A stretch of DNA of 64,000 nucleotides from Escherichia phage vB_EcoM_Kelasse. The translations under genes and the position numbers were made by a program. The stretch lies in sequence record MW749001.1, one strand, 5' to 3'. Below, in pieces: positions 6,313 to 57,777 of this stretch (position 1 is the first letter of the stretch; each line of letters starts with the position of its first letter). The notes beneath the pieces were generated by a model. It was not told the origin of the DNA. It saw only the letters and a list, made by a program, of their open reading frames with translations, and did no database searches.

Positions 6313-6591
6313 TCAAAATGTAATTTCTAACCAATCACCATCACGCTGATCACTATTAACTTTAAAGATGAATCCTTCTTTTCTCAGCCAATCACCAATT
6401 TCTTCAGTAATCAATTTATCACGAGCAGTACAATAATAACTAAAATATGTTTTACCTTGTTCAGCTGCTTTATTAGCAAGTTCCGAAAAATCTTTAATAA
6501 AACACTCTAGTTTAAACTGTTTGCTTTTAAGTGCTTTTTCGCGTAATCGATTAGCAAAAGATTCATTTTCATAAAGATCATACTGTTCCAT
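6313..6591 (-). CDS. hypothetical protein
   Basis: 92 aa ORF tightly packed downstream of rnlB region. Confidence 0.5.
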   Translation of the reverse strand: MEQYDLYENESFANRLREKALKSKQFKLECFIKDFSELANKAAEQGKTYFSYYCTARDKLITEEIGDWLRKEGFIFKVNSDQRDGDWLEITF

Positions 6592-6793
6592 TTTTCACCT
6601 TTTTATTGATATGTCTTTTTCTATAGACAACTTTTTCTCGAGTTTCAAATTTATTCTTAGCAGTCATAGCTCGAGCCCATAATACAGCCACTTCTTTTGC
6701 CTGTAAGTTTAATTCACGAGCAATTTCAATGAATGACTTTCCAGACTCATGAAGAGTAAACACCACAACCTCAGTTCTCATAATCAATCTCAT
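6578..6793 (-). CDS. hypothetical small protein, possible HTH
   Basis: 71 aa; segment SGKSFIEIARELNLQAKEV resembles helix-turn-helix. Confidence 0.45.
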   Translation of the reverse strand: MRLIMRTEVVVFTLHESGKSFIEIARELNLQAKEVAVLWARAMTAKNKFETREKVVYRKRHINKKVKNGTV

Positions 6794-6862
6794 GTTATCG
6801 AGTTGGTGCCATTATATACATCATTTTCTGATTGTGTTTTGTGTGCTTTCAAAATGAAGAAA

Positions 6863-6876
6863 GGGGCCGAAGCCCC
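6863..6876 (-). terminator. stem-loop after hoc
   Basis: GGGGC-CGAA-GCCCC; minus strand followed by TTTCTTCATTTT. Confidence 0.5.
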
Positions 6877-6882
6877 TTATGA

Positions 6883-8301
6883 TTATGGATAGGTATAGAT
6901 GATACCAGTTTCTAAAGCAGTTTTATGAATGATGTATCCATTACGCGATTCTTGGACATCAACTTCTGGATAGTCTTTCATCATCTTCTGAAGAGTGTAA
7001 CGATGCAGGTAGTATTTACTATCTGGATCGTCAGTTTTCCAATCTTTACCTTCTTCGGTCATTTTTTGGATTTCATCCATAACCCACCAACCGCACCAGA
7101 TGTAAGCTGAAGTGCGATGTGGAAGAGGATGAACATAAGGCAATTCACCTTCTGGTTCTGGAGCAACTTTATCAGTTACCTGAACTTGACCTTCTGCTGT
7201 GATAGTTTTGCTATCATAATCAGTAGCAGTAACAGTTGCAGTAACTTCAATAGTTTGACTTCCAATAGATGATGTATCAACAGTGTATACATTAGTTGAC
7301 CCTTCTACTGGAGAAGAATCTTTCTTCCATGAATATTCGATTTGTGCTTCTTCTGGAGCATCCGTAACATTAGCAGTAAATGTAGCCGAAGCATCTTGCT
7401 GAACGTTAATAGAAGGAGGAGTCAATGTAACCCGTGGATTCATTGTTTTCTTATTAACAGTCAATGATACTTCATTAGAAGTAACTTCCTTTTCATTGTA
7501 ATTTTCAGCAGTTACTTGGGCTACGCATTTAATTCTTTTAACCCCACTTGTAGTTGGAGTGTAATTGAACGTAGCATTAGTTTCTCCACCAACTTGTGAA
7601 TCATCTACATACCACTGATACGTAGCAGATGCTCCTAGCGGCTGCGAAGCTAAGGCAGCAGTAAATTGAACTGGGGTTCCAATTACTCCTGCTGGAGGAC
7701 TATCAGGAGTTACTGCCAAAGTAGTCGTCTGCGTCTTTTTATTAACAGTCAGTGATACTTCATTAGAAGTAACGCTTAGTGTATCATAATCTGCCGCAGT
7801 TACTTGAGCTACACACTTGATTTTTTTAACTCCGCTTGTGTCAGGAGTGTAATTGAATGTAGCGTCAGTTGCTTCGTCTACAGGAGAACCGTCAACGTGC
7901 CATTGATACGTAGCGTTTGCACCTGATGGCTGTGAAGCTAAGGCAGCGGTAAATTCAATTGGAGTTCCAATCACTCCAGCATCAGGGCTACCAGGAGTTA
8001 CAGCTAAAGTAGTTGTTTGTGTCTTATTTTGAACTGTGATAGTTGTACTAATTTCAGCTGTTTCAGGTTCAGATTCTGCAACTTGATTGGTTGCAACTAC
8101 TTTAATAGTCTTTTGACCGGCAGGTCCTTTTAGTACATAACTAAAAGTTGCTGACGTTTCTTCCTGTGGAGCGTCGTCTACAGTCCAAGCATATGTAATA
8201 GGTCCATCTCCAGTTTGACCACTGGGTGTAGCAGTAAACTGCTGAGTCTGATCTATAACTCCAGTAGGTGTTTTAGGAGTTATATCAACTGTAAAAGTCA
8301 T
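6883..8301 (-). CDS. hoc: highly immunogenic outer capsid protein with four Ig-like domains
   Basis: 472 aa, MTFTVDITPKTPTGVIDQTQQF...; conserved C-terminal capsid-binding region ...YIWCGWWVMDEIQK; internal 96-aa tandem repeat. Confidence 0.85.
   Translation of the reverse strand: MTFTVDITPKTPTGVIDQTQQFTATPSGQTGDGPITYAWTVDDAPQEETSATFSYVLKGPAGQKTIKVVATNQVAESEPETAEISTTITVQNKTQTTTLAVTPGSPDAGVIGTPIEFTAALASQPSGANATYQWHVDGSPVDEATDATFNYTPDTSGVKKIKCVAQVTAADYDTLSVTSNEVSLTVNKKTQTTTLAVTPDSPPAGVIGTPVQFTAALASQPLGASATYQWYVDDSQVGGETNATFNYTPTTSGVKRIKCVAQVTAENYNEKEVTSNEVSLTVNKKTMNPRVTLTPPSINVQQDASATFTANVTDAPEEAQIEYSWKKDSSPVEGSTNVYTVDTSSIGSQTIEVTATVTATDYDSKTITAEGQVQVTDKVAPEPEGELPYVHPLPHRTSAYIWCGWWVMDEIQKMTEEGKDWKTDDPDSKYYLHRYTLQKMMKDYPEVDVQESRNGYIIHKTALETGIIYTYP
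7450..8025 (-). repeat. intragenic tandem duplication in hoc (two 288-bp units)
   Basis: Protein residues 93-188 and 189-284 are near-identical (KTQTTTLAVTP...SNEVSLTVNK); DNA repeat visible. Confidence 0.8.
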
Positions 8302-8991: not shown

Positions 8992-9004
8992 AATATTTCC
9001 TCAG

Positions 9005-9012
9005 TATAAATA
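9005..9012 (+). promoter_or_regulatory. late promoter TATAAATA (uvsW)
   Basis: Exact TATAAATA about 30 nt upstream of uvsW ATG. Confidence 0.55.
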
Positions 9013-9041
9013 TAGATATATTTATTACATGGTATTTAGAC

Positions 9042-36426: not shown

Positions 36427-37605
36427 TTAAAAATATTTTTTAAAACTCATCATAACTTTATCATCAACATCATTATCAATCTGTGCTACAAGGTAAGATG
36501 ACAGTTCTACTTCTTGCGGCGCGGATTGAACATTATCAGAATTAAGGTATTCACGAATCCAAGGATATGGATGTTTAACCGGAGCATCGGTAATTGGACA
36601 TGGAAGACCGCACTGTTTCATACGAGATACAGTTAAGTAATCAATAAAGCTCCACATGCTATTTGTATTTAATCCAGGAACATCGCCATCTTTAAATAAA
36701 TGAACTGCCCAATCTTTTTCTTGGCGGTTAACTTCCATGAAAATATCAACTGCTTCTTGTTCACACTCTTGAGCAATTTTAACCCATTCATCGCCATCAG
36801 TACCAGATTGAAGTTGACGAATAATATATTGGGTGCCTTTAAGGTGAAGCTGTTCATCGCGTGCAATGAACTTCATAATCTTGGCATTACCTTCCATGAT
36901 TTCCATGTTCTTATGGAAGTTAAAGGTACATGCGAAAGATACATAAAAACGAATAGCTTCCAATGCATTGATTACATGCAAACAGAGGTAAAGAGATTTC
37001 ATTAGCTCACGCTTCCAATATGTCTCATGCTCAATAGCATCTTCAATAACGTCTTCGTCTGCATTAATTTCTTTTTGGTATTCGATATCAGCTTTAGCGT
37101 TTTCCCAATAACGAGTTTTAATCAGAACATCATCATAATAACGTCCAATGGATTCAGCACGTTTCATAATAGCTTCATCTAATACAATTTCATCAAATAC
37201 CTTCGATGGATCAGTATAAAGATTTCGCATGATATGAGTATATGAACGACTGTGAATAGTTTCACTAAAAGTCCATGTAGCAACCCATGTATCAAGGCTT
37301 GGGTCTGAAATTAATGACATAAGTACAGCAGATGGCGCGCGACCCTGAATGCTATCTAAAAGTGATTGATACTTCAAGTTGTTAGTAAAAATATTTTGCT
37401 GATACTGAGGAAGCTTGTTAAATTGCGCAGCATCCATCATTAAGTTTACTTCTTCAGGACGCCAGAAAAATGACAACTGCTTTTCGGTTAAATCTTCAAA
37501 AACTTTATGACGTTGAATATCATAACGCGCAATACCAAGGCCTGAACCAAAAAACATAGGTTCTTTTAAAACATCAACTGGATTTGTATTAAAAACTGTG
37601 CTCAT
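36427..37605 (-). CDS. nrdB: ribonucleotide reductase small subunit (uninterrupted)
   Basis: 392 aa continuous ORF MSTVFNTNPVDVLKEPMFFGSGLGIARYDIQ; no intron. Confidence 0.9.
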   Translation of the reverse strand: MSTVFNTNPVDVLKEPMFFGSGLGIARYDIQRHKVFEDLTEKQLSFFWRPEEVNLMMDAAQFNKLPQYQQNIFTNNLKYQSLLDSIQGRAPSAVLMSLISDPSLDTWVATWTFSETIHSRSYTHIMRNLYTDPSKVFDEIVLDEAIMKRAESIGRYYDDVLIKTRYWENAKADIEYQKEINADEDVIEDAIEHETYWKRELMKSLYLCLHVINALEAIRFYVSFACTFNFHKNMEIMEGNAKIMKFIARDEQLHLKGTQYIIRQLQSGTDGDEWVKIAQECEQEAVDIFMEVNRQEKDWAVHLFKDGDVPGLNTNSMWSFIDYLTVSRMKQCGLPCPITDAPVKHPYPWIREYLNSDNVQSAPQEVELSSYLVAQIDNDVDDKVMMSFKKYF

Positions 37606-40475: not shown

Positions 40476-41336
40476 TTACACCGCCATCTTTCCTTTAATA
40501 GGAGGGTGTGATTCATAGTTGTTAAGAACAAAATTATGCGGCTTTGCGAATTGACTCAACCAAAATACCTGCGATTCTGTGTCCCATTCATCAAATTCAT
40601 CTGGAAATTTTAATTGCAATTCGCATAAATCCATAGGTTCACGACGCAAAATTTCTTTACATTGCTCTACGTGATTCATATAGATATGAGTATTACCACC
40701 AGAAAATATCAAATCTCCGGGAATAAGATTACACATCTTAGCTACAATATGCGTCAAGGCAGCGTACGAGGCAATGTTGAATGGCAAGCCCAAGAAAACA
40801 TCTACACTTCTTTGGTACCACTGCAAATCCAAATAGCCATTACGCACATTAAACTGATAGAACATATGACAAGGCGGTAATGCCATATATTTAAGTTCAG
40901 CTGGATTCCACGCAGAAACAATTTGACGCCTATCATTCGGCAGTTTTTTAATACGATCAACAACTTCTATAATTTGGTCTACACCGCCAAAATCACGCCA
41001 CTGTTTTCCATAAATTGGACCAAGTTCACCACTATGGTATCCTAAATCTTTTGCCTGATTTTCGTAATTTTCATCCCAAACTGTTTTGCCTTGGATTAAC
41101 GAATCGTGTTGAATTAATCGTAAATCATTGACATTTGTGCTTCCCGATAAAAACCATATTAGCTCAGCAATACATGCATTCCAGGCGAGCTTCTTAGTTG
41201 TTACTGCAGGAAAACCTTTGGTTAAATCCCAACGCAATTTAGTACCGAACAAAGCAATTGTTCCTGTGCCTGTTCGGTCATCGGTTTCATAACCATTTTC
41301 AAAAATGTCTTTAATTAAATCTTGGTATTGTTTCAT
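40476..41336 (-). CDS. td: thymidylate synthase (uninterrupted)
   Basis: 286 aa continuous ORF; active-site LPPCH; no intron. Confidence 0.9.
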
Positions 41337-53016: not shown

Positions 53017-56000
53017 ATGGCTACTTTAAAACAAATACAATTTAAAAGAAGCAAAACCGCAGGTGCACGTCCTGCTGCTTCAGTATTAGCCGAAGGTGAA
53101 TTGGCTATAAACTTAAAAGATAGAACAATTTTTACTAAAGATGATACAGGAAATATCATTGATCTAGGTATTGCTAAAGGCGGTCAAATTGATGGAAATG
53201 TAACTATTGATGGAACTTTACGCGTCAATGGACCAATAAACAACTTTGGAAATTTTTCTACAAGTGGTACTATTACGGCAAGTAATATTGTTTCTGCTAC
53301 AGTATTCAGATCAACATCCGGTTCATTTTATACAAGAGCAATAAATGATACTGCAAATGCCCATCTTTGGTTTGAAAATACGAATGGATCGGAGAGAGGG
53401 GTTTTATATTCAAAACCACAGTCTGAAAATGAAGGCGTAATTACAATGCGCGTTCGCCAAGGAACCGCAGCAGGGGCTCAAAATTCAGAATTTCATTTCA
53501 TTTCTACTGATGGCGGTATCTTCCAGGCACGCAAATTAACTGCTTTAACTTCTATTAGTACACCAACTATTAGTGTTAATTTAATTAATCATGATTCTAA
53601 AGCCTTTGGACAATACGATTCACAATCATTAGTTCAGTATGTTTATCCTGGAACCGGTGAAACAAATGGTGTAAACTATCTTCGTAAAGTTCGAGCTAAA
53701 TCAGGTGGCACTATGTGGCATGAAATCTGTACAGCTCAGACAGGACAAGCTGATGAAATGTCATGGTGGACTGGTAATACTCCTCAGTCTAAACAATACG
53801 GTATTCGTAATGACGGACGAATGGCTGGACGTAATAGCCTTGCATTAGGTACATTCACTACAAATTTCCCGTCTAGTGATTATGGCAACGTCGGTGTAAT
53901 GGGCGATAAATATCTTGTTCTCGGTGACACTGTAACTGGCTTGTCATACAAAAAAACTGGTGTATTTGATCTAGTTGGCGGTGGATATTCTGTTGCTTCT
54001 ATTACTCCTGACAGTTTCCGTAGTACTCGTAAAGGTATATTTGGTCGTTCCGAGGACCAAGGCACCACATGGATTATGCCTGGCACTAATGCCGCTTTCT
54101 TGTCTGTTCAAACACAAGCTGATAATAACAATGCTGGAGACGGCCAGACGCATATTGGGTACAATGCTGGCGGTAAAATGAGTCATTATTTCCGCGGTAA
54201 AGGCAAAACTAATATTAATACTCAGGAAGGTGTAGACGTTAACCCGGGTATATTGAAGTTAACCACCGGCGGTGAAAGTATTAGCTTTAATGCCGCAACT
54301 GGAAGTATTAATTCTACATTAGCTTTTCGTCTTAATAAAGGCATAATTATTGATGGACCTGATAATCAGGGATTCCAGTTTAACGCCCCGACGGCTGCAG
54401 ATGGTACTAGAAGTATATACTGGAACAGTGGTACTCGCGCAGGTCAAAACAAAAGCCCTGTTACAGTTAAAGTGTGGGGTAATTCATTTAACGCATCGGG
54501 CGATCGTGCTCGTGAAACGGTTTTTGAAGTAGCTGATGGGCAAGGTTTCCATTTTTATTCTCAACGTGTAGCTCCTGCGCCTGGTTCTACCGTCGGACCT
54601 ATTCAATTTCGAGTTAATGGTGGTTTATTAACTTCTGGTGGTATTACATCATCTGGTTCTATTGTTACTGAATCAAGTTTAGTTGCCAATAATGGCATGT
54701 CAGTAAATGGTCAGGCTAAATTTGGCGGAACAGCAAACGCACTGAGAATTTGGAACGCTGAATACGGTGTTATTTTCCGTCGTTCTGAAAGTAACTTTTA
54801 CATTATTCCAACCAATCAAAATGAAGGCGAAAGCGGAGACATTCATAGCTCTTTGAGACCTGTAAGAATAGGATTAAACGATGGCATGGTTGGGTTAGGA
54901 AGAGATTCTTTTATAGTAGATCAAAATAATGCTTTAACTACGATAAACAGTAACTCTCGCATTAATGCCAACTTTAGAATGCAATTAGGGCAGTCGACAT
55001 ATATTGATGCAGAATGCACTGATGCCGTTAGACCTGCAGGGGCTGGTTCATTTGCCTCGCAAAATAATGAAAACGTCCGTGCTCCGTTCTATATGAATAT
55101 TAATCGCACAGATACAAGTACTTACGTTCCAATTGTTAAACAGAGATACGTACAAAATAATAGTTGCTATTCTATTGGTACTTTAATTAATGGCGGTAAT
55201 TTTAGAGTTCATTATCATGAAGGTGGTGATGGCGGTTCTACTGGCGCGATTATAAAGGATTTAGGTTGGGAATTTAATAAAAACGGTGATTTTTACTCTC
55301 CTGGTAAATTAGGTGCTGGAAATATTCGTATCGGAACAGACGGTAATATTACAGGTGGTTCTGGTAATTTTGCTAACTTGAATACCACATTAAACCGTAA
55401 GGTCAATTCCGGATTTGTAACATACGGTGCAACTGCTGGATGGTATAAATTCGCTACAGTAACGATGCCACAATCTACTTCTACTGTTTCATTTACTATA
55501 ACTGGTGGTAAAGGATTTAATACCGGACTGTTTACACAATGTGCTATAACAGAAATTGTTCTTCGTACTGGTAATGACCGCCCAGCAGGTTTAAACGCCG
55601 TGATGTATACCAGAACAGCTGCAGGTCTTACTGATATTGCTGTAGTTAATACCTCAGGAAATACATATGATATCTATGTTGAATCTGGTACTTATGCCAA
55701 TCAATTAGCTTATACATGGCATACAGTTGATAATGCTACAGTAGAAGTTATCGGCGCTTTTGGTCCTACTCAAGACCCGGTAGATTCTTTGCCGGCTGAT
55801 TATGTTAAAGGCCAAGTAGCTAACATGCTTAACAACCTGGTAGACACAGGTAAAGTAAAACGTTATGTAGCAGAATCTGAAATTGCTATTAATAACCAAA
55901 CGGGTCTTCGTATTACGAGTAATTCTGATAGATCAGGTTCTAATTCCGTTTTATTTCGAAATGACGGTGGAAGCTTCTATATTTTACTGACTGACAAAAA

Positions 56001-56955
56001 CTCTTCAGACGGCGATAATAAAGCAACTGAAGGCGATTGGAATGGAAAACGACCGTTTTCAATCGATATGACTGCTGGTACTGTTCGTCTTGGCGAAAAT
56101 ACTTCTTTTGATAAAGATATTACTATTAATGGAAACATTAATTCACGAGTTAAAGCTGCCGGACAATGGAGTGTTAGCTTTTCTGCTATTTCAGATGTGA
56201 CTCGCGACAATTCTGCATTCTTAGCGAATACGGGTGGCATTTCCAAGACAAGTCAAGCTTATTACCCGCTATTTTCTGGATACAGTTTTTTAACTGACGC
56301 GGGTTATCGACAATCGTTTGAATTTGGATGGTTAGGTGTTTCTGGTACTTGGCGCCAAGGCATTATTCGCATGCGTGGTGACAACGCATCGGGGCAACAG
56401 GCTCGTTGGACTTTTGATATGGACGGAACATTTTATGCTCCTATACTATCATGCGGATCTGCGAGAGCATTCGGTGTCAATACATCAAATGGTCTCGGTG
56501 GAAACAGTATAACATTTGGTGATAGCGATACTGGTATTAAGCAAAATGGCGATGGATTATTAGACATATATGCGAACAGCGTACAAGTGTTCCGTTTCCA
56601 AAACGGTGATTTGTACTCATACAAAAATATAAATGCTCCAAACGTTTATATTCGTTCTGATATTCGTTTAAAATCCAACTTCAAACCTATCGAAAATGCA
56701 CTTGATAAAGTTGAAAAACTCAACGGTGTCATTTACGATAAAGCTGAATACATCGGTGGAGAGGCAATTGAAACTGAAGCGGGTATTGTGGCTCAAACGT
56801 TACAAGACGTTTTACCAGAAGCTGTCCGTGAAACAGAAGACAGTAAGGGTAATAAAATACTCACTGTTTCTTCTCAAGCCCAGATTGCTCTTCTAGTTGA
56901 AGCTGTGAAAACACTTTCTTCTCGTGTAAAAGAACTTGAATCTAAACTTATGTAA
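53017..56955 (+). CDS. 37: long tail fibre distal subunit with C-terminal intramolecular chaperone domain
   Basis: 1312 aa [43 protein letters not shown]; shares VWGN..F...TVFEV..HFYSQR repeat with gp34; C-terminus has SDIRLKSN...[15 protein letters not shown]. Confidence 0.85.
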
Positions 56956-56985: not shown

Positions 56986-57777
56986 ATGGCAATTGTAGGT
57001 GTTCCTGGCTGGATTGGTGAATCTGCCGTGAATGAAACTGGACAACGCTGGATGGACGCTGCGATGAAAGCTGTTCGTGTTTCAGTTCCCGGTTGGATGA
57101 GTTCAATGGCTGGGCAATCTAAAGAAGTATATTATAGCGTTGGTGCTAGCAATTCTTACAATAAAGACACACTAATAAATTGGATAAAAGCCCAAGGCAG
57201 TACTCCTGTTGTTATTACTATTACAGGAAATATTGTTTCTCAATCTACTGGTGTTCCATGCTTAGATTTTCCTAGCTCATTAACTAATGCATATGTTACC
57301 TTAAATATTAATAGTGGGGTTCATGTATTAGGTCGGGGAGGAAATGGCGGAAGTAACTCTGCTGGCGGAGCAGGAGGAACTGCAATAAATAACGGAATTG
57401 GAACTCGTTTAAGAATAAACAATAATGGTATTATTGGTGGCGGCGGAGGTGGCGGCGCTGGTGCTAGATACCATCCTTTCCCTCAAATGGATATGATATT
57501 TGGTGGCGGCGGAGGTCGTCCATTTGGCGCAGCTGGCGCAGCAGGAGGTGGCGCAGCGGCAGCATCCGCTGGTACAATTTCTGCTCCTGGTAAAGGTACT
57601 GTTTCTGGGGTTCACTATGGAGGAAATGGTGGAGATTTGGGAGCTGCTGGCAAATCTTCATATATTAAAGGTGGTACTGGAGGAACTGTTCACTCGGGTG
57701 GTGCTGCGGGTAAAGCTGTTACTGGTAATGCTCCAACTTGGACTAAAGTTGGCACAATATATGGTTCAAGAGTATAA
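56986..57777 (+). CDS. 38: tail fibre tip adhesin (T2-type gp38)
   Basis: 263 aa MAIVGVPGWIGESAVNETGQRWMDAAMKAV; multiple glycine-rich motifs separated by variable segments. Confidence 0.8.
   Translation: MAIVGVPGWIGESAVNETGQRWMDAAMKAVRVSVPGWMSSMAGQSKEVYYSVGASNSYNKDTLINWIKAQGSTPVVITITGNIVSQSTGVPCLDFPSSLTNAYVTLNINSGVHVLGRGGNGGSNSAGGAGGTAINNGIGTRLRINNNGIIGGGGGGGAGARYHPFPQMDMIFGGGGGRPFGAAGAAGGGAAAASAGTISAPGKGTVSGVHYGGNGGDLGAAGKSSYIKGGTGGTVHSGGAAGKAVTGNAPTWTKVGTIYGSRV

Follow-up and report, generated by a model that had tools for sequence, protein, structure and literature searches.

A Hoc capsid decoration protein with four predicted Ig-like domains in a T4-type phage, very probably one state of an old, ordered and recombining array of domain-2 units

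The Hoc protein encoded by Escherichia phage vB_EcoM_Kelasse is predicted, from its sequence and a structural model, to carry four N-terminal Ig-like domains where T4 Hoc has three, with the domain-2 module present twice. The two copies very probably belong to an old, ordered array of units (u1-u2-u3), of which one to three are present in a given hoc gene and whose copy number is shifted by unequal recombination. The gene was analysed within a stretch of 64,000 nucleotides (sequence record MW749001.1), referred to here as the window, and all coordinates are positions in that window. Hoc is a non-essential fibre located at the centre of each gp23 hexamer of the T4-type head; the “bacteriophage adherence to mucus” model is built on it, and vaccines and vectors derived from T4 favour it as a platform for display.

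Identification of the hoc gene

An open reading frame on the minus strand at 6883–8301 (472 aa plus stop) encodes Hoc. In a phmmer search against all PDB chains the protein matched T4 Hoc (5vf3_Z) at E = 3.4e-224, with query residues 1–128 aligned to T4 Hoc 1–128 and query residues 189–472 aligned to T4 Hoc 93–376. It also matched PHROG 1149, “Hoc-like head decoration” (E = 2.4e-148), and three further PHROGs with this annotation (21694, 14282 and 11091), the latter three on the C-terminal part. T4 Hoc is 376 aa in length (PDB 5vf3_Z; hoc of AF158101), the figure of about 376 aa given in the initial annotation being correct, and the window Hoc equals T4 Hoc plus 96 aa, the extra residues being of domain-2 type. 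The gene order rnlB-24.2-24.3-hoc-inh-uvsW is as in T4, based on the window ORFs compared with the T4 annotation and on the gene calls of related contigs. Traits of a T4-type Hoc that are present here are full-length homology, a position between inh and 24.3/24.2/rnlB, a conserved capsid-binding C-terminus and an N-terminal linear string of Ig-like domains. The window Hoc resembles T4 Hoc (PDB 5vf3, 8t1x; PMC10385173) in its full-length homology, D1, D3, gene neighbours and Ig-string architecture, but T4 has one domain-2-type module instead of two (376 vs 472 aa).

A terminator-like GC-rich hairpin followed by a T-run is located on the minus strand at 6861..6878, 5 nt past the hoc stop codon, and was the sole credible site returned by a scan for sigma-70 promoters and terminators. 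In Yersinia phage fPS-90, the stretch aligned with hoc carries the annotation “terminator”. Another hairpin-like match, at 7978–7960 inside U1, was dismissed as it lies within coding sequence. No T4 late promoter (TATAAATA) was found upstream of either hoc or inh on the minus strand, the only nearby copy of this motif being on the plus strand at 9005–9012, facing uvsW. Scans for tRNAs and Rfam families across the whole window gave no hits.

Predicted structure of the window Hoc

All regions of the coding sequence (6883..8301) are on the minus strand. The protein begins with an Ig-like domain (D1, aa 1–92, 8026..8301) which aligned with T4 Hoc 1–92 and was modelled as all-beta at a pLDDT of 85–94. 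This is followed by two domain-2-type Ig-like/PKD modules. The first, U1 (aa 93–188, 7738..8025), was delimited by repeat detection, assigned to a “first position” type by its clustering with the first units of two- and three-unit Hocs, and modelled at a pLDDT of 90–96; the second, U2 (aa 189–284, 7450..7737), is of a “second position” type and was found by repeat detection and by a match to Pfam PKD (PF00801; score 38.2 bits, cut-off 23.5, strongest over aa 195–267). The next Ig-like domain (D3, aa 285–380, 7162..7449) corresponds to T4 domain 3, aligning with T4 Hoc 189–284 at a pLDDT of about 90, and the capsid-binding domain at the C-terminus (aa 381–472 plus stop, 6883..7161), covered by the PHROG matches, is nearly identical to T4 Hoc 285–376.

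Pfam cut-offs were passed in the window Hoc by PKD, BiPBP_C and PKD_3, while Ig_2, Ig_3 and I-set remained below theirs; this includes the Ig_3 and I-set matches on D3 (aa 289–373). D1, the units and D3 are mutually distant homologues with 24–38% amino acid identity, D1 sharing 35–38% with the units. AlphaFold2, run on a shallow 38-homologue alignment, predicted four separate all-beta domains, with pLDDT >90 over most of aa 1–378. The C-terminal domain was modelled from the same 38-sequence alignment at low confidence (pLDDT 40–66) and is nearly invariant across the 38 aligned homologues. The top Foldseek matches in the PDB were themselves four-Ig strings (Dscam1 Ig1–4, Sidekick Ig1–4 and ICAM-5 D1–D4). 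The initial annotation had proposed a fourth Ig-like domain relative to T4 Hoc, and phmmer, AlphaFold2 and Foldseek all agree with this, the extra domain being a copy of domain 2; domain prediction, which it had suggested as a check, favours tandem Ig-like folds (AlphaFold2, Foldseek, Pfam PKD).

Divergence between the two units

Tandem Repeats Finder detected one tandem array at 7451–8025 (period 288, 2.0 copies, 77% matches, score 698), and a second repeat search again returned a spacing of 288 nt. The layout first read from the sequence, a 472-aa Hoc in which residues 93–188 and 189–284 form two in-frame 96-aa (288-bp) units at 7450–8025, is exact in its coordinates, but the description of these units as near-identical does not hold. 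Aligned in register, U1 and U2 share 221 of 288 nt (76.7%) and 75 of 96 aa (78.1%), and their longest exact run is 21 nt (unit nt 253–273). This is a genuine repeat nonetheless, with identity in a shuffled control at 25.8% ± 2.5% (5000 shuffles, z = 20).

Differences between U1 and U2 fall mainly at third codon positions (14, 15 and 38 at positions 1, 2 and 3, respectively), with a dS of 0.905, a dN of 0.150 and a dN/dS of 0.17 (Nei–Gojobori). These values place synonymous sites close to saturation, hence U1 and U2 are old paralogues, each kept under purifying selection. A recent in-frame duplication had been proposed; the duplication is in frame, but the dS, the position-specific unit types and the many carriers described below all speak against its being recent. 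The mismatches involve every base in U1 (A 22, C 19, T 14 and G 12), with transitions making up 44 of the 67. There was a trend only towards more U1/U2 differences in loops (13 of 43 positions) than in strands (8 of 53; Fisher p = 0.087), and loops show more variation than strands (entropy 0.64 vs 0.30). U2 is closer to the T4 unit than U1 is (86.1% vs 79.2% nucleotide identity).

Conservation is pronounced at the unit ends. The 3′ end of U1 (VTSNEVSLTVNK-K, 7733..7773, minus strand) includes the 21-nt run identical to U2 and belongs to a 41-nt repeat family with 93% identity, its partner being the 3′ end of U2 at 7445..7485 on the same strand.

Distribution among related phages

Dozens of phages sequenced independently, from several hosts and countries, carry the 1419-bp gene at 94–99.9% nucleotide identity, including FriedrichMiescher, ESh31, teqsoen, fPS-90, ime09, phiD1, HP3 and the G-series (G4507). 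Near-identical 472-aa genes have already been deposited and annotated as Hoc. The 472-aa Hocs of other Tequatrovirus phages have the two-unit architecture of the window, with essentially no difference; the hoc of FriedrichMiescher/Bas39 has one additional G within a run of Gs, and is annotated there in two parts.

When U1 was used as a query, it matched 890 places in 616 phage records, and in an evenly spaced sample of 60 of these 616 records there was one place in 34, two in 25 and three in one. Roughly 40% of the matching Tequatrovirus-type records would then carry a two-unit hoc and a few would carry three units, a share estimated from the place counts and the 60-record sample in a database biased towards isolates from E. 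coli and Shigella. Protein lengths give a similar picture, as among the best 120 protein clusters from 5.8 billion proteins, 77 were of 376 aa, 29 of 472 aa and nine of 567–570 aa. An HMM of the unit found one, two or three strong copies, tracking Hoc lengths of 376, 472 and 567–570 aa. On the basis of these sequence searches, the 472-aa form is a common allele class in Tequatrovirus. In IMG/VR, more distant T4-like phages had Hocs of 279–282, 367–378, 471–472 and 549 aa. A search of the 96-aa unit against 1.84 billion representatives found no close Hoc and returned mainly giant multi-Ig adhesins, at 28–46% identity.

Ordered unit types and crossover footprints

To compare units between phages, 170 of them were clustered at 90% identity, which resulted in position-specific groups. 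The cluster holding U1 contained only first-position and single units (nine singles), and that holding U2 contained second-position and single units (13 singles) plus one first-position unit of a two-unit protein. A third type comprised last units, being the third of three or the second in some two-unit proteins, together with five singles. The lone first-position unit in the U2 cluster may be that of P0021, which is 97% identical to U2. Within one protein, the units were 39–85% identical (15–61% different) in all 39 multi-unit Hocs examined.

Comparison was then restricted to proteins whose D1, D3 and C-terminal domain are 96–100% identical to those of the window Hoc. On this shared backbone the array was [u1] in P0082 (376 aa), [u2] in P0086 (376 aa), [u1,u2] in the window and P0009 (472 aa), [u2,u3] in P0021 (472 aa) and [u1,u2,u3] in P0001 (568 aa). 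Three-unit Hocs (568–570 aa; UGKSEcP1, UGKSEcP2, A6-6 and metagenome contig L024) have the backbone, u1, u2 and order seen in the window, but differ in having a third unit, u3, between U2 and D3. In L024 the DNA of D1 and D3 is 100% identical to the window, that of U1 96.5% and that of U2 99.0%, and in phage A6-6 the order u1-u2-u3 is found on a more divergent backbone.

Several of the shorter genes carry a unit that switches from one type to another along its length. Contig L022, which encodes P0082, matches the window DNA at 100% identity in D1, in D3, in the C-terminal domain and over 1 kb downstream, and its single unit has the U1 state at all informative sites through nt 252 and that of U2 at the two that remain, nt 274 and 288. 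The switch between nt 252 and 274 places the crossover within nt 253–273, the longest identical run of U1 and U2, with the U2 side resting on the two informative sites at nt 274 and 288 both here and in the isolate Yersinia phage PYPS2T, which has the same chimeric unit. In L025, which encodes P0086, the unit changes from U1-type to U2-type just past nt 48, and L027 (phage UoN_LDJ77_1) corresponds to the three-unit L024 minus one unit, with the switch at about nt 54–93. The single unit of T4 is likewise a mosaic of u3-, u2- and u1-like blocks, and from one phage to another D1, the units and D3 form mosaics.

These chimeric units are what unequal homologous recombination from unit to unit should leave behind. 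Whether each event was a deletion or an addition is inferred from the chimeric patterns in a handful of sequences. The initial annotation had called the locus recombination-prone, and the natural one- and two-unit chimeric derivatives on identical or near-identical backbones support this, with the recombination set within an old array.

In the mechanism that we consider very probable, u1, u2 and u3 form a small ordered cassette array in Tequatrovirus, where one, two or three units give a Hoc of 376, 472 or 568 aa. The number of units would change by unequal homologous recombination between them, using as substrate the conserved stretches, chiefly where units end (VTSNEVSLTVNKK) and where they start (KTQTTTLAVTP). 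One such exchange would lose or gain exactly 288 bp, keeping translation in frame and leaving D1, D3 and the capsid-binding domain untouched.

Alternative explanations for the repeat

The exact in-frame period of 288 bp and a protein longer than T4 Hoc by 96 aa would also be expected of a recent tandem duplication of domain 2, private to this lineage and with near-identical copies. We regard this as refuted by the divergence of the units, since synonymous divergence should then be near zero, whereas the units are 76.7% (nt) and 78.1% (aa) identical at a dS of 0.905, and none of the 39 multi-unit Hocs has units >85% identical. The two-unit gene moreover recurs in dozens of isolates obtained independently in several countries and from several hosts, its unit types are position-specific, and independent records at 99.9% identity exclude sequencing artefact as the source of the divergence. 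Tandem repeats are a classic assembly hazard, and a single unit could have been wrongly expanded or two co-infecting hoc alleles joined during assembly, but nothing specific points to this here and it is extremely improbable. Units whose longest shared exact run is 21 nt are separable by ordinary assemblers, the identical architecture is present in many independent GenBank genomes and in metagenome contigs, and the frame is intact with purifying selection on both units. An artefact collapsing on resequencing had been named as a finding that would overturn the repeat, and the independent genes at 94–99.9% identity together with the divergence of the units exclude it. Nor do we give any appreciable credence to targeted hypermutation, in which a diversity-generating retroelement or similar system would use one unit as template and the other as its variable copy. 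Two similar units in a surface-exposed binding protein, with higher variation in loops (entropy 0.64 vs 0.30), might suggest such a system; however, in both units the mismatches involve all four bases, with no A-to-N pattern between them, the differences are mostly at third codon positions as in neutral drift, and both units are translated inside one ORF. As a candidate retroelement repeat pair, the units were rejected on this mismatch spectrum, which is not confined to adenines.

A different origin for the array itself is rather unlikely, but deserves more weight than any of the above. Here u1, u2 and u3 would once have been alternative domain-2 alleles of different lineages, brought together by illegitimate or unequal crossing-over during co-infection, and the single-unit genes of today would include both ancestral alleles and products of deletion. 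All three unit types are also found alone, in 376-aa Hocs (9, 13 and 5 singles), T4-type phages recombine freely in mixed infection (PMC9271167), and the mosaicism of D1, units and D3 between phages is in keeping with such exchange. However, the single-unit genes inspected at the DNA level are chimeras, with the 3′ end of a downstream unit or the 5′ end of an upstream unit, which fits deletion, and the fixed u1-u2-u3 order on divergent backbones fits one ancient array. An allelic origin also needs a crossover between the D1/unit and unit/D3 junctions, and D1 and D3 have only 34–38% amino acid identity with the units.

Relation to known Hoc variation

Ig/PKD/Big-fold arrays commonly expand and contract by unequal recombination. 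Bacterial adhesins with such arrays resemble the window Hoc in that proteins with as many as 39 repeats of this kind match the 96-aa unit, but these are cellular surface proteins without the Hoc capsid-binding domain and share only ~30–40% identity. Fokine et al. 2023 (PMC10385173) describe Hoc homologues in which a conserved capsid-binding domain carries between 1 and 10 Ig-like domains. More distant Hocs are like the window Hoc in their variable number of Ig-like modules on this domain, and adherence to fucosylated mucin has been proposed or shown for them, but their extra or missing domains are other modules and the IMG/VR relatives are 35–51% identical at 279–549 aa.

Variable Hoc domain number in T4-like phages has therefore already been published, and the two-unit Hoc is an ordinary, known kind of variation. 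In a literature search covering few subscription journals, we found no paper on the u1-u2-u3 cassette order or on crossover chimeras. The ordered cassette picture and the visible crossover points are a modest addition which leaves current understanding unchanged. About four in ten sequenced T4-type phages having a longer, four-Ig Hoc, with clean gain and loss of units, is nevertheless useful to know for annotation, for the characterisation of phages for therapy and for display engineering.

Possible consequences for fibre length and glycan binding

T4 Hoc is a fibre of 180 Å (18 nm) with three Ig-like domains and the capsid-binding domain (PMC10385173), and an extra module of ~4 nm would plausibly lengthen the fibre beyond this. 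The extra unit may also add a second, diverged glycan-binding or immunogenic surface. In the Hoc of phage PNJ-9, domain 2 residues S183, L184 and T185 bind fucosylated MUC2 (PMC11853027), and the motif NEVSLT, which contains this contact, occurs twice in the window Hoc as a motif match only (aa 180–185 and 276–281). In PNJ-6, the contact with fucosylated MUC2 lies in domain 1 (E29 and G33) and no binding was seen for domain 2 (PMC11150434), hence an added domain 2 need not add binding. In T4 Hoc, D246 in domain 3 affects glycan affinity (PMC9271167).

The domain-2 array could conceivably act as a recombination-driven, reversible switch of both fibre length and binding valency, kept polymorphic by mucus, glycan or immune selection. 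We think this unlikely on present indications; if true, the locus would be a contingency-like one on the phage capsid rather than a site of neutral length variation.

Variation within hoc and its neighbouring genes

The hoc gene of the related phage FriedrichMiescher (GenBank MZ501066) differs from that of the window solely by one additional G, located in a G-run (window 7542–7545, CCCC on the plus strand; nucleotides 757–760 of the hoc coding sequence) within U2, the second of the two tandem domain-2-type units. Because of this extra base, FriedrichMiescher hoc is listed as two features, “part 1” and “part 2”. Records of vB_EcoM-101117BS1, PM107 and PM108 cover 1418 bp of hoc, compared with 1419 bp, and two of these three records also list two features at the locus. 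The extra or missing base in hoc records may be either a homopolymer sequencing error or a true frameshift hotspot.

The protein sequence of U1, the first unit (window 7738–8025), had no match above 46% identity in a representative protein library, whereas Tequatrovirus Hoc proteins were plentiful in a second protein collection. In the representative library, a distant member seems to stand for the Hoc cluster, unless the cluster is absent altogether.

Differences were also observed in the genes beside hoc. A segE-type GIY-YIG homing endonuclease gene lies between inh and uvsW in T4, FriedrichMiescher, PYPS2T and contig L022, but is absent from the window, where the inh/uvsW intergenic gap is only 50 bp (8992–9041), and likewise from the related loci L024, L025 and L027. 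The window phage could thus potentially acquire segE by homing, and repair of the SegE-induced break could promote exchange in the adjoining hoc gene. Among the few loci compared, segE presence did not track the number of domain-2-type units in hoc. The small ORF adjoining hoc, a gene 24.3 homologue (window 6578–6793, minus strand), is of variable length: it encodes 71 aa in the window, the T4 gene spans 171 bp and encodes 56 aa, several relatives from metagenomes have a 67-aa version, and FriedrichMiescher and PYPS2T carry a homologue of 216 bp.

Variation elsewhere in the window

The nrd region was observed in the window, together with two uninterrupted minus-strand ORFs of 392 aa (36427–37605) and 286 aa (40476–41336), lengths that fit nrdB and td, respectively. 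An Rfam scan of the entire 64 kb returned no family at gathering score, hence no group I intron was detected. The T4 introns of nrdB and td appear to be absent from the window, with the candidate ORFs assigned by length.

Relatives fully covered the 24 kb from 30000 to 54000 at approximately 96% identity, with only one record reaching at least 99%. The match over this region spanned ~35 kb in several relatives, including JLBYU24, Sf22 and PhiZZ6, compared with ~25 kb in TH09, which suggests that relatives differ by large insertions/deletions, or that the search tool linked segments lying far apart.

Downstream of a 1289-aa ORF and two shorter ORFs, plus-strand ORFs of 1312 aa (53017–56955) and 263 aa (56986–57777) look, by position and length, like a putative T2-type gp37/gp38 distal tail-fibre/adhesin pair rather than the T4-type, whose counterparts are 1026 aa and 183 aa.
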